From the UHGV virus genome UHGV-0134996: DNA of 64,000 bases. One strand, given 5' to 3'. A model generated the notes under the pieces. It was not told the origin of the DNA, did no database searches, and worked only from the letters and a program-made list of their open reading frames with translations. The translations under genes were made by a program, and so were the position numbers. This DNA comes from a virus. Positions 34,054-36,495 of the stretch are shown here, in pieces (position 1 is the first letter of the stretch; each line of letters begins with the position of its first letter).

Positions 34054-34081
34054 ATTACACTAATAAATTTATTAGAGCAAT
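34054..34081. promoter_or_regulatory. bipartite palindromic C1 operator (Op72-like) at start of ban operon
   Basis: ATTACACTAATAAATTTATTAGAGCAAT: two overlapping operator copies around palindrome CTAATAAATTTATTAG; overlaps dmt stop. Confidence 0.7.
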
Positions 34082-36495
34082 ATTGCTATAACGTCATGAG
34101 CAACACCTCGAGTGTCCCCCTTACAAGACACAGAACGTCTGGCAAAAAGAGGTTCCACTCTGAAGCCACTGTCCTGATAAAGTTCTCTGATGTTTGGCGC
34201 GCCACTGTTAGTAATGAGAACCTTTGCACCTCGGCGATGAGCATCCGTCAACAGAGACACCAGGCGTTTTTGCTCTTCAAACTTAAAGTCATGACCGGAA
34301 TAGTTCGTGAATCCCTCTGTATTTGGGAGCGGTTCATACGGCGGATCGCAAAAGATGACATCTCCTTCTCCGGCAGCTTCAATCACCGCAGCAAAATCAC
34401 CACATACAAACTCAGAACGCCCTTCCGCACCAAGGAAGGCTTCCATCTCCTGCAATGGGAAATACGGAGTTTTATACTTCCCATAACCGACATTGAACTC
34501 ACCGGCTTGGTTGTAACGCGTCAATCCGTTAAAACAATGTCGGTTCAGGAACAAAAACGCCGCTGCGCGATGTAAATCATCATAGACTTGTTTGTTAAAC
34601 GCATTCCGTACTGCCAGGTATCCTTCCTGCGTGTTGTAGTCCTGGAAGAAACGATGTGCCAGAGTGATAAGTGAATGCGCCTCGCGTTGCAGAGTCTTGT
34701 AAAAGTTAATCAGGTCAGCATTCACATCATTTAGCAGATTTTCCTGGTATCCGGCATTCATGAAGACAGCTCCGCCACCAACGAAAGGTTCAATCAGGCG
34801 CTTCCCTTCTGGCAAATAGCGAAAGATTTGTTCCAGAACACCAAATTTTCCACCAGCCCATTTGAATATGGACCGTTCGAATTCTGCCGCTGGTTTAACT
34901 TTTCGCTCTTTTGTTTCACTTCCTTCTTTCTGCCGACATGCAGCCTTGGTAATCCGCTCGCCAATCCAGCGCATTACTGGTATCGCCATACTATTGCCGA
35001 TCGCTTTGTAACGAGGTCCGTCAGCTGCAAGCATGGCGGCCTCTTCTTCACTTAAATCAGGATCGTGATTGCGAAGGTATATAAGTTCATCTGAAGTAAC
35101 TTTCTTACGCTTTCCCGTTGGAATCAACGTATGTCCATCAGGAAAACCTTGCAGCCTTTCACATTCGACAGGAGTCAGACGGCGAACGCTCATCATATGA
35201 GGTAAGTAACCATTCTCACCTAATTCGCCTTTTTCAATACTTTCCTGCCCCCAAAAAGATAACGCAACGGCGTCAGCTGTTGCGCGGGAATCAAGAGTAA
35301 AACTTATCTCTTTTTGCCACCCTTTACCCTGCGGTCCAGCATCATCTTTTCGCCCAATTTGTGCATGTTGTAGCGAATACGCAACAGCTGGTGGGCATCC
35401 CGCGTTTTGATTGCTATTAGCAGAGTTACCAGCTCGTAAAGTTGGGGAAATCTCAACACCCGCATCCTGCCCATAATTTTTGCTTGTAAACGCAATAGCT
35501 TTCTTGCAAGAAAACACAATTGGAGCTTCATGATTACAAGTAAGAGTAGGTGATGTCCCATCATTTTTTATTTCTGCCCCCCCTTGCCCATGCGCCATGC
35601 AATACACAAGTCCGCTGCCTCGCTGCGCAAAAATCTCTTGGTTACTTGCACCAATCCCACCAGTATTGTGTGACTGGTTAAGTGTCGGGTGAGGATTTAC
35701 AGGGTTATCCCAATGGCTCCCGCTTTTAATGCCATTTCCAACATTTCCGGCAACTTCCTTCCCCTCGCCTCTGCTCGGCGCAATATCCCGGCGCACGCCT
35801 TCGAACTCAAAAAGTACCGTTGCGGGATCGAGGTCTGTTCGAGCACTTGCGACAACAAACACGCGTCGGCGTCGTTGTGCCACTCCGAAGTATTGGGCAT
35901 CAAGGATTCTCCAGGCCACCTTTCGCTGCGGTCCATAAATACAACCACACTGCGGCCACTTTGGAGCATGGCAACCGGTTTTGCCATCCCACCGCCAGAA
36001 CGCGTTACTTTTTCCTGATTCAGGTCGATCACCTGGTTCAAATGGCGCATCTTCTCCAGCCAATCCGGCAAGGAAACATCCGAAGGCGTTATCTGCCGAT
36101 GACAGGACTCCTGGGACATTTTCCCAGACGATAACTGTCGGTTTGAGGAAGGACTCAGACCGTTTGTCGTCAATTGCATTTGCAAGCTCCACATACTTCA
36201 AAGTTAGCGCGCCGCGTTCATCATCAAGCCCACCACGTAAGCCCGCGATACTGAATGCCTGACAAGGCGTACCCCCGACGAGCACATCAGGGGATTCGAT
36301 TTCCCCAGCCAGGACTTTTTTGGCAAGTTTTGTCATGTCGCCAAGGTTGGCGACATGGGGCCAGCGGTGCGCAAGAACGGCAGATGGAAAAGGCTCGATT
36401 TCAGCAAACCACGCCGGACGCATACCCAACGGTTCCCAGGCAATACTCGCGGCTTCAATTCCACTGCAAACAGATCCATAGCACAGCTCTTTCAC
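34072..36495 (-). CDS. dmt: bifunctional DNA methyltransferase: N-terminal C5-cytosine MTase-like, C-terminal Dam-like N6-adenine MTase
   Basis: 807 aa; PCQ and ENV motifs in N-terminal half, KWAGGK and DPPY motifs in C-terminal half; long G/N/S-rich variable region. Confidence 0.8.

Follow-up and report, generated by a model that had tools for sequence, protein, structure and literature searches.

In the annotated record of the phage-plasmid P1 (AF234172), dmt codes for a bifunctional methyltransferase of 754 amino acids (aa), which modifies the N6 position of adenine in GATC and "perhaps" the C5 position of cytosine. Dam methylation of the pac site is needed for P1 packaging, and dmt is essential only in hosts that lack Dam (PMC12707154, citing Sternberg and Coulby 1990). 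The dmt gene described here belongs to a P1-like (Punavirus) phage-plasmid and is contained in a stretch of 64,000 nucleotides (nt) of the UHGV virus genome UHGV-0134996; this whole stretch is called the window.

The other described systems that resemble this gene are the C5 methylases of the Bacillus phages SPR, phi3T, rho11s and H2, studied in the Trautner laboratory, and M.BssHII. They have one catalytic core and several short tandem units between motifs VIII and IX, each unit is built around a (S/A)(P/T)T(L/I)T-type core, and alleles differ by the presence or absence of units. Enzymes of the SPR/phi3T type reportedly carry independent tandem recognition domains (Wilke and colleagues, 1988, and related papers), and inactive pseudo-domains are said to have been documented by Lange and colleagues in 1991 in enzymes of the rho11s/H2 type. 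The Bacillus phage enzymes are phage-borne orphans, and the window dmt, whose neighbours are hrdC and the ban operon, is likewise found without a cognate endonuclease. In SPbeta, methylation protects against host restriction (PMC8270828).

The C5 half of the window Dmt contains, between motifs VIII and IX, an array of four short modules that are exchanged among P1-like elements and are under purifying selection. A cassette-swapped, possibly multispecific C5 methylase, which lies in the P1 dmt locus with its C1 operators, is the best explanation of the locus, and we propose it with good confidence.

The two methylase halves of Dmt

The protein encoded by the open reading frame (ORF) at 34072-36495 joins a C5-cytosine methylase to a Dam methylase (Table 1). 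The C5 half has the ordered motifs I (SVCSGIE, aa 8-14), IV (GGTPCQ, aa 74-79, with the catalytic Cys78), VI (ENV, aa 125-127, at 36115-36123), VIII (QRRRRVF, aa 207-213, at 35857-35877), IX (aa 438-453) and X (GNS, aa 500-502), and the PCQ of motif IV (aa 77-79) is found at 36259-36267. It is matched above cutoff by the Pfam profile PF00145 DNA_methylase (126 bits, cutoff 22) and by the NCBIfam profile TIGR00675 dcm (112 bits, cutoff 100.65). The model of the C5 core has a predicted local distance difference test score (pLDDT) above 90 in aa 1-240, and its best Foldseek matches are M.HhaI, M.HaeIII and DNMT1, with E-values of ~1e-9, so motif order, profiles and fold all place this half in the C5 family.

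The Dam half is matched by TIGR00571 dam (NCBIfam, aa 542-804, 252 bits, cutoff 115) and by PF02086 MethyltransfD12 (Pfam, aa 546-779, 5e-57). It contains KWAGGK (aa 545-550, at 34846-34863), the S-adenosylmethionine (AdoMet)-binding glycine motif FVGGGAV (aa 571-577) and DPPY (aa 717-720, at 34336-34347); the profile, DPPY and the glycine motif are those of the Dam family. Judged by these motifs and profiles, the window Dmt is one polypeptide with an N-terminal C5 methylase (aa 1-516) and a C-terminal Dam-type methylase (aa 542-807). A preliminary description, which was made from the letters of the window, had reported a bifunctional C5/N6 Dmt of 807 aa with PCQ, ENV, KWAGGK and DPPY, and the length, the positions of the four motifs and the Pfam and NCBIfam domains of both halves bear it out. 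The GATC specificity of the Dam half is presumed from its near-identity to the Dam half of P1 Dmt, which is GATC-active according to the literature.

An array of modules inside the C5 domain

In the alignment of the window Dmt with those of P1 and SJ46, a divergent block, aa 241-436, is flanked by near-identity in aa 1-240 and aa 437-807. The comparison with P1 Dmt had been proposed in the preliminary description as a means to delimit the variable region, and it sets these limits. The block lies between motifs VIII and IX and M.HhaI aligns to both of its flanks, therefore it is assigned to the C5 domain, as the region by which this enzyme recognises its target. The preliminary description had placed a specificity region rich in G, N and S between the two halves; the composition (G 13.8%, S 9.2%, N 7.7%) and a plausible role in specificity stand, but the region lies inside the C5 domain and not between the two enzymes.

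The same composition, together with the low confidence of the AlphaFold2 models in this part, would suit a flexible low-complexity linker that joins the two enzymes. This is very improbable, since C5 motifs IX and X are found downstream of the block, a motif order that refutes it; the block also holds conserved, selected modules with TL cores, and the true linker between the C5 and Dam domains is at ~aa 517-541.

Cores of the form [P/F]TL are found at aa 270, 316, 351 and 399, one in each of the modules A, B, C and E. The variable block has four of these cores while shuffled sequences have 0.03, and the other 611 residues of the protein have none. The region is thus described as an array of four [P/F]TL modules of ~30-40 aa, in the order A-B-C-E, followed by a tail.

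P1 Dmt (AAQ14041) has the same gene position and the same Dam half, and Op68 lies upstream in both. Residues 1-240 of the window protein are near-identical to aa 1-240 of P1, and aa 437-807 to aa 384-754 of P1; the recognition region between them has 196 aa in the window, for the A-B-C-E array and its tail, and ~143 aa in P1. Apart from scattered residues, nothing in P1 corresponds to aa 241-436. The preliminary description had given a length of ~754 aa for P1 Dmt and a longer protein in the window, and both are correct; the possibility, which it had also named, that length and sequence would be those of the reference Dmt does not hold against P1 (807 versus 754 aa, with aa 241-436 divergent). 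The window protein has 53 residues more than P1 because the target-recognition region was exchanged, and as the alignment presents it the two proteins differ by the substitution of recognition cassettes and not by elongation.

Table 1. Features of the dmt locus and of related sites, by position in the window
Feature	Position	Strand	Remarks
dmt coding sequence	34072..36495	minus	807 aa; GTG start; TAA stop at 34072-34074; orthologous to P1 and SJ46 dmt
C5 methylase, N-terminal part (aa 1-240)	35776..36495	minus	PF00145, TIGR00675; sequence matches in PDB to M.HhaI and M.HaeIII
Variable target-recognition region (aa 241-436)	35188..35775	minus	between motifs VIII and IX
Module A (aa 259-297)	35605..35721	minus	commonest module among relatives found with the variable region as query
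Module B (aa 300-327)	35515..35598	minus	sole recognised module of the P7 allele
Module C (aa 334-373)	35377..35496	minus	in 55 of 150 family representatives
Module E (aa 374-414) and 22-aa tail (aa 415-436)	35188..35376	minus	near-identical DNA in CP023961
C5 methylase, C-terminal part (aa 437-516)	34948..35187	minus	motifs IX and X; alignment; AlphaFold2 pLDDT ~90
C5-Dam linker (~aa 517-541)	34873..34947	minus	between the end of the C5 domain and the start of TIGR00571 at aa 542
Dam-type N6-adenine methylase half (aa 542-807)	34075..34872	minus	PF02086, TIGR00571; near-identical to the Dam half of P1
Bivalent C1 operator Obanab (formerly Op72ab)	34054..34081		28 of 28 positions identical to the annotated P1 operator
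P1ban promoter	34052..34080	minus	-35 TTGCTC at 34075-34080, -10 TAATAT at 34052-34057; by P1 homology only (AF234172)
C1 operator Odmt/Op68	37746..37762	minus	1 mismatch to consensus; upstream of uhr-hrdC-dmt; position as P1 Odmt
c1 repressor gene	852..1703	plus	283 aa, intact; product expected to bind the operators

Exchange of cassettes among P1-like elements

The arrays of P7, the window and SJ46, P1 and the plasmid CP023961 were compared in a four-way alignment. The P7 "Dam" allele (672 aa) has one unit, B; the allele of the window and SJ46 (807 aa) has A-B-C-E and the 22-aa tail; the P1 allele (754 aa) has D-F and a further SPSL-containing unit; and the allele of CP023961 (862 aa) has A-D-F-H-C-E and the tail. 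The DNA of the window is near-identical to that of CP023961 through A, diverges from it abruptly where D-F-H replaces B, is ~80% identical in C and becomes near-identical again in E. A separate candidate, that the P1 segment in place of module A is a frameshifted module A, was ruled out, since it has no similarity in any frame.

The SJ46 dmt covers the full length of the 2.6 kb around the window gene with 97.7% DNA identity. Its protein (AMR60040, 807 aa) is 97% identical to that of the window and has the same length and the same A-B-C-E array. Four plasmid records (CP103764, CP117587, CP069975 and CP126930), whose hosts are E. coli and E. albertii, are 100% identical to the window over the 2.6 kb. 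P1, P7, RCS47 and others align to only 78% of this query, in 2-3 pieces, and P1 is 97-98% identical over these 78%, which lie outside the variable block. SJ46 Dmt and the identical plasmid alleles have no substantial difference from the window allele; they are annotated as Dam-family or DNA adenine methylase, with the C5 half and the array unannotated, and the 807-aa protein of NZ_CP103764.1 (71060-73660) is named by RefSeq only "Dam family site-specific DNA-(adenine-N6)-methyltransferase". Naming Dmt for its Dam half makes the C5 half invisible to annotation-based surveys. The gene, the operator and the exact allele are already in public records, the window allele being of the SJ46 type, and the finding is mostly confirmatory, with a known gene and a known operator.

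Four arrays recur among the best 80 P1-like loci of the IMG/VR survey: D-F is the commonest, followed by B, while A-D-F-H-C-E is found 5 times and the A-B-C-E array of the window 3 times. The window array is present in 11 of 5426 complete E. coli genomes, in all of which the protein is annotated only as a "Dam family" methyltransferase. With the anatomy corrected in this way, the variation in Dmt length from one P1-like phage-plasmid to another comes down to which cassettes the C5 recognition region carries. In E. coli and Salmonella, these elements often carry resistance genes. Neither the build-up of the Dmt recognition region from cassettes nor its re-assortment among P1-like elements was found described in the literature.

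Wider relatives of the recognition region

A search with the variable block gave 2187 relatives, and many of them are standalone C5 methylases of ~370-400 aa from Aeromonas, Xenorhabdus, Photorhabdus, Salmonella and Citrobacter; the top match of this search had 52% identity and near-identical proteins were not among its matches though identical plasmid genes exist, which is taken as a limit of the search. With ~20 module seeds, more than 60 module architectures are found among 125 sequences, such as A-D, A-B, A-G, A-W-Q and A-D-S-H-C-X-K, and the order of the modules is occasionally altered (W-B-A, A-I-D).

When 1.8 billion representatives were searched exhaustively and without a profile, 31,208 matches were obtained, of which the best 150 were analysed. 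In these the segment from motif VIII to motif IX is 89-472 aa long, with a median of 256 aa, and 84 architectures are found. A fusion to Dam is present in only 9 of 130 representatives.

The standalone C5 methylases of gammaproteobacterial phages and prophages, such as P0010, P0012 and P0036, have a catalytic core ~55-70% identical to that of the window and use its module vocabulary in other combinations (A-D, A-B, A-G), but they lack both the Dam fusion and the C1 control. The relatives are phage genes of the orphan kind. Another standalone relative, P0013, is located in the early region of a temperate phage; a CI-like repressor and a primase are encoded there, and no nuclease adjoins it. Two distant C5 and Dam fusions (L070:1441-4047 and L083:1474-3945, 48-49% identity) were also observed on metagenomic viral contigs; their recognition arrays, of 297 and 319 aa, are longer still and are made of the same module vocabulary.

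Selection on the modules and the state of the C5 half

All 10 differences in module A between the window and CP023961 are synonymous, and module C has, in the same comparison, a ratio of non-synonymous to synonymous substitution rates (dN/dS) of 0.28. Module B compared with that of P7 has a dN/dS of 0.08, with dS saturated, and the whole dmt compared with that of SJ46 has a dN/dS of 0.19. The catalytic motifs are retained in 75-80 of the 80 natural alleles. The modules are protein segments under purifying selection, not junk.

These values also bear on whether the C5 half is vestigial, with Dam, through its role in pac cleavage, as the only half that matters and with neutral drift or recombination in the variable block. 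The reference annotation gives the C5 activity of P1 Dmt only as "perhaps", laboratory P1 has W74 next to the catalytic PCQ where 51 of 51 intein-free natural alleles have G, another laboratory P1 record has an incomplete dmt, and dmt is non-essential (PMC10695390), all of which would fit such a decay. The catalytic motifs of the window are intact, as they are in nearly all natural alleles, dN/dS is low both for the whole gene and for the recognition modules (0-0.28), and the relatives that stand alone have a complete C5 methylase and no Dam, so a vestigial C5 half is improbable.

Multispecific or monospecific recognition

The C5 half of Dmt and the large proteobacterial phage C5 family to which it is related may be multispecific, with a repertoire that is re-assorted by the shuffling of ~30-45-aa cassettes, each of which would recognise one motif (a "cassette code"); this is put forward tentatively, at somewhat short of an even chance. 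Read in this way, the window allele would have four cassettes, P7 one and the relatives up to about ten, and Dmt would be an enterobacterial counterpart of SPR and phi3T, fused to Dam and turned on when C1 repression is lost, a picture that we regard as possible and just as tentative. In favour of multispecific units are the four [PF]TL modules, which are shuffled and selected, while their identity as recognition domains is given by position and motif only. One module may suffice for recognition, as the P7 allele carries only B.

The variable regions of the Bacillus phage enzymes, of 184-277 aa, are similar in size to that of the window, and their sequences follow the same grammar (...SPTLTT...KIAV; AVSHTLSAS...NAVV; EPAFTVNTIDRHGVAV). 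The window Dmt differs from them in its catalytic core, which is from another, proteobacterial lineage, and in its fusion to Dam. Matches between its modules and the Bacillus enzymes cover only an 8-residue core (DGTSPTLT versus DGVSPTLT), with E-values of at least 0.001 in a database of four sequences. As the similarity is confined to this short DGxSPTLT-type core, the Bacillus parallel is an analogy and not a shown homology.

Several points weigh against a cassette-swapped, possibly multispecific methylase. AlphaFold2 was run on aa 1-531 with two alignments, A4 (94 sequences) and A6 (53 sequences, of compatible module orders only), and in both runs aa 241-426 have a pLDDT below 50, which gives no structural support for independent recognition domains. 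The variable block, compared by sequence with all PDB chains, had no match at E <= 10, and a direct comparison of the modules with the recognition domains of SPR, rho11s, H2 and phi3T gave only the short TL core. It is also possible that some modules are scaffolding or pseudo-domains with no activity, and module A, which is so common among close relatives, may be structural. In addition, C5 activity is only a "perhaps" in the P1 record itself, and P1 grows without dmt in a CRISPR interference (CRISPRi) screen (PMC10695390).

Part of this could be accommodated by the main rival reading, a monospecific enzyme, in which the 196-aa block would be one composite recognition domain, or one active module with pseudo-domains or scaffolding, directed to a single motif that is possibly unlike that of P1. 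Inactive pseudo-domains are reported for the rho11s/H2 type (Lange and colleagues), a structural role could be the reason that most close relatives have module A, and no independent folding units are predicted. A monospecific enzyme is nevertheless rather unlikely: the modules recombine freely and change order, B stands alone in P7 and with three others in the window, purifying selection acts on all modules tested, and variable regions of up to 472 aa are hard to fit with a single short target.

Under the preferred reading, a cassette-swapped and possibly multispecific methylase, the uhr-hrdC-dmt operon, which ends with dmt and has Op68 as its operator, would be repressed by C1, and Dmt would therefore be made when repression is lifted. 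Each module would be a separate target-recognizing domain that serves the single catalytic core, on the model of SPR, phi3T, rho11s and H2, and the cytosine motifs methylated by the window allele would differ from those of P1 Dmt and would probably be more numerous. The C5 methylation would shield the DNA of the progeny in advance against type II restriction systems of the next host, while the Dam half would supply the GATC methylation required for P1 pac cleavage. The last codons and the stop codon of dmt are embedded in Op72ab, which would keep the tRNA-tci-ban operon off in the prophage.

We infer a changed specificity of the window allele from its exchanged recognition region, and we infer the resemblance of the locus to a multispecific methylase only by analogy. 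The preliminary description had suggested an altered specificity from the greater length of the protein; the suggestion is reasonable, but the structural ground for it is another one, the exchange of cassettes within the C5 domain. Literature searches gave no determined C5 specificity of any Dmt allele and no account of multiple recognition domains in Dmt. If the cassettes are independent domains, P1-like elements would differ in the host restriction systems that they evade and in their sensitivity to McrBC-type nucleases, which would affect host range, and the hundreds of natural combinations would be a data set that links short protein modules to 5-methylcytosine motifs.

An intein in Dmt and the dmt of laboratory P1

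An in-frame intein of 341 aa is found in 24 of the 80 P1-like dmt alleles of the IMG/VR survey, inserted exactly before Cys78, so the catalytic cysteine is the +1 extein residue. Its junctions, marked by slashes, read ...GGTP/CFTAGHMVL...AVVHN/CQAFS, and it passes the Pfam cutoffs for LAGLIDADG_3 and Hint_2. The intein is found in all array types for which both forms are seen, with lengths that change from 754 to 1095, from 672 to 1013 and from 807 to 1148 aa. The intein-bearing loci are L014:1498-4941, which has an allele of the window type, L018, L054 and 21 others. The window allele is intein-free and has the empty site between aa 77 and 78 (between nt 36264 and 36265). No paper on a Dmt intein was found in the literature.

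Residue 74 is W in the laboratory P1 of AF234172 (VLVWGTPCQ) and G in the window and in all 51 intein-free natural alleles (VLVGGTPCQ). In the laboratory P1 record AF234173, dmt is incomplete, and in the P1 of a CRISPRi study it is split into dmt-A and dmt-B. The C5 half may be damaged in laboratory P1, and this might be the reason that its C5 activity has never been established.

Gene order and predicted C1 control

The element is a P1-like phage-plasmid and the locus is its dmt gene. The gene order is that of P1 and, on the minus strand and going downstream, is uhr, hrdC, dmt, operator, tRNA-Asn, tRNA-Thr, tciA/B/C, CAT-anticodon tRNA and the position of ban, which is occupied by a 456-aa ORF (29890-31260). 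The start of dmt shares 4 nt with the stop of the upstream hrdC/rdgC gene. All elements of the P1 synteny are present, from Op68 through uhr-hrdC-dmt, Op72ab, the tRNAs, tciABC and tRNA-CAT to ban. By the homology of Op68 to that of P1, dmt itself should be C1-repressed.

The operator at the 3' end of dmt has two overlapping inverted 17-bp sites, which lie over the ban promoters as in Op72ab of P1. Obanb (34054-34070, plus strand) has 2 mismatches to the consensus ATTGCTCTAATAAATTT and Obana (34065-34081, minus strand) has none; the two sites overlap by 6 bp and cover the dmt stop codon. Op72ab as a whole is an inverted repeat with 19-nt arms, which are 84% complementary. In the P1 annotation, Obanab is located over the 3' end of dmt and overlaps the sigma-70 promoters P1ban and P2ban, which are co-directional with dmt. 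P1ban reads towards tRNA-Asn, tRNA-Thr, tciABC, the CAT-anticodon tRNA and ban. A generic sigma-70 scan of the sequence did not call P1ban, because its -35 box TTGCTC is weak. The preliminary description had seen a bipartite C1 operator over the dmt stop that faces the tRNA-tci-ban operon; the two sites are there and head that operon, but the ban promoters are co-directional with dmt and not convergent.

An A+T-rich inverted repeat with a perfect centre, located at the end of a gene, could also be a chance repeat or the terminator of dmt and not a repressor site. This is extremely improbable, as the repeat is identical to the annotated Op72ab of P1, one of its half-sites agrees with the consensus at 17 of 17 positions, and the operator consensus has 14 matches in the window versus 0.37 expected from shuffles. 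In addition, the repeat is not G+C-rich and has no T-run, and a terminator-like hairpin is found further downstream (33869-33888). The operator is a real feature, although a textbook P1 element, and it is predicted to bind C1. Control by C1 of the uhr-hrdC-dmt operon and of the next operon is expected from P1, by sequence match for Op68 and by identity for Op72ab. Among the 14 operator-like sites of the window are Op68 and a cluster at 194-757, which lies beside c1.

The hairpin downstream of the operator, which is on the minus strand and has a T-run, lies ~170 nt downstream of P1ban, within a stretch that matches the "dicF-like region" of P1 (~33856-33957). An Rfam search of the sequence downstream of the operator, where P1 has this region, gave no family at the gathering score and only noise at E < 1.

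Just upstream of the operator and still inside dmt, at 34082-34091, the window has ATTGCTATAA where P1 has ATACCCAAAA. This segment is probably not a third operator site, as it matches 10 of 17 operator positions. The window sequence adds a 10-nt arm to the inverted repeat, and the C-terminus of the protein is DVIAILL in the window and DVLGILL in P1 and SJ46.

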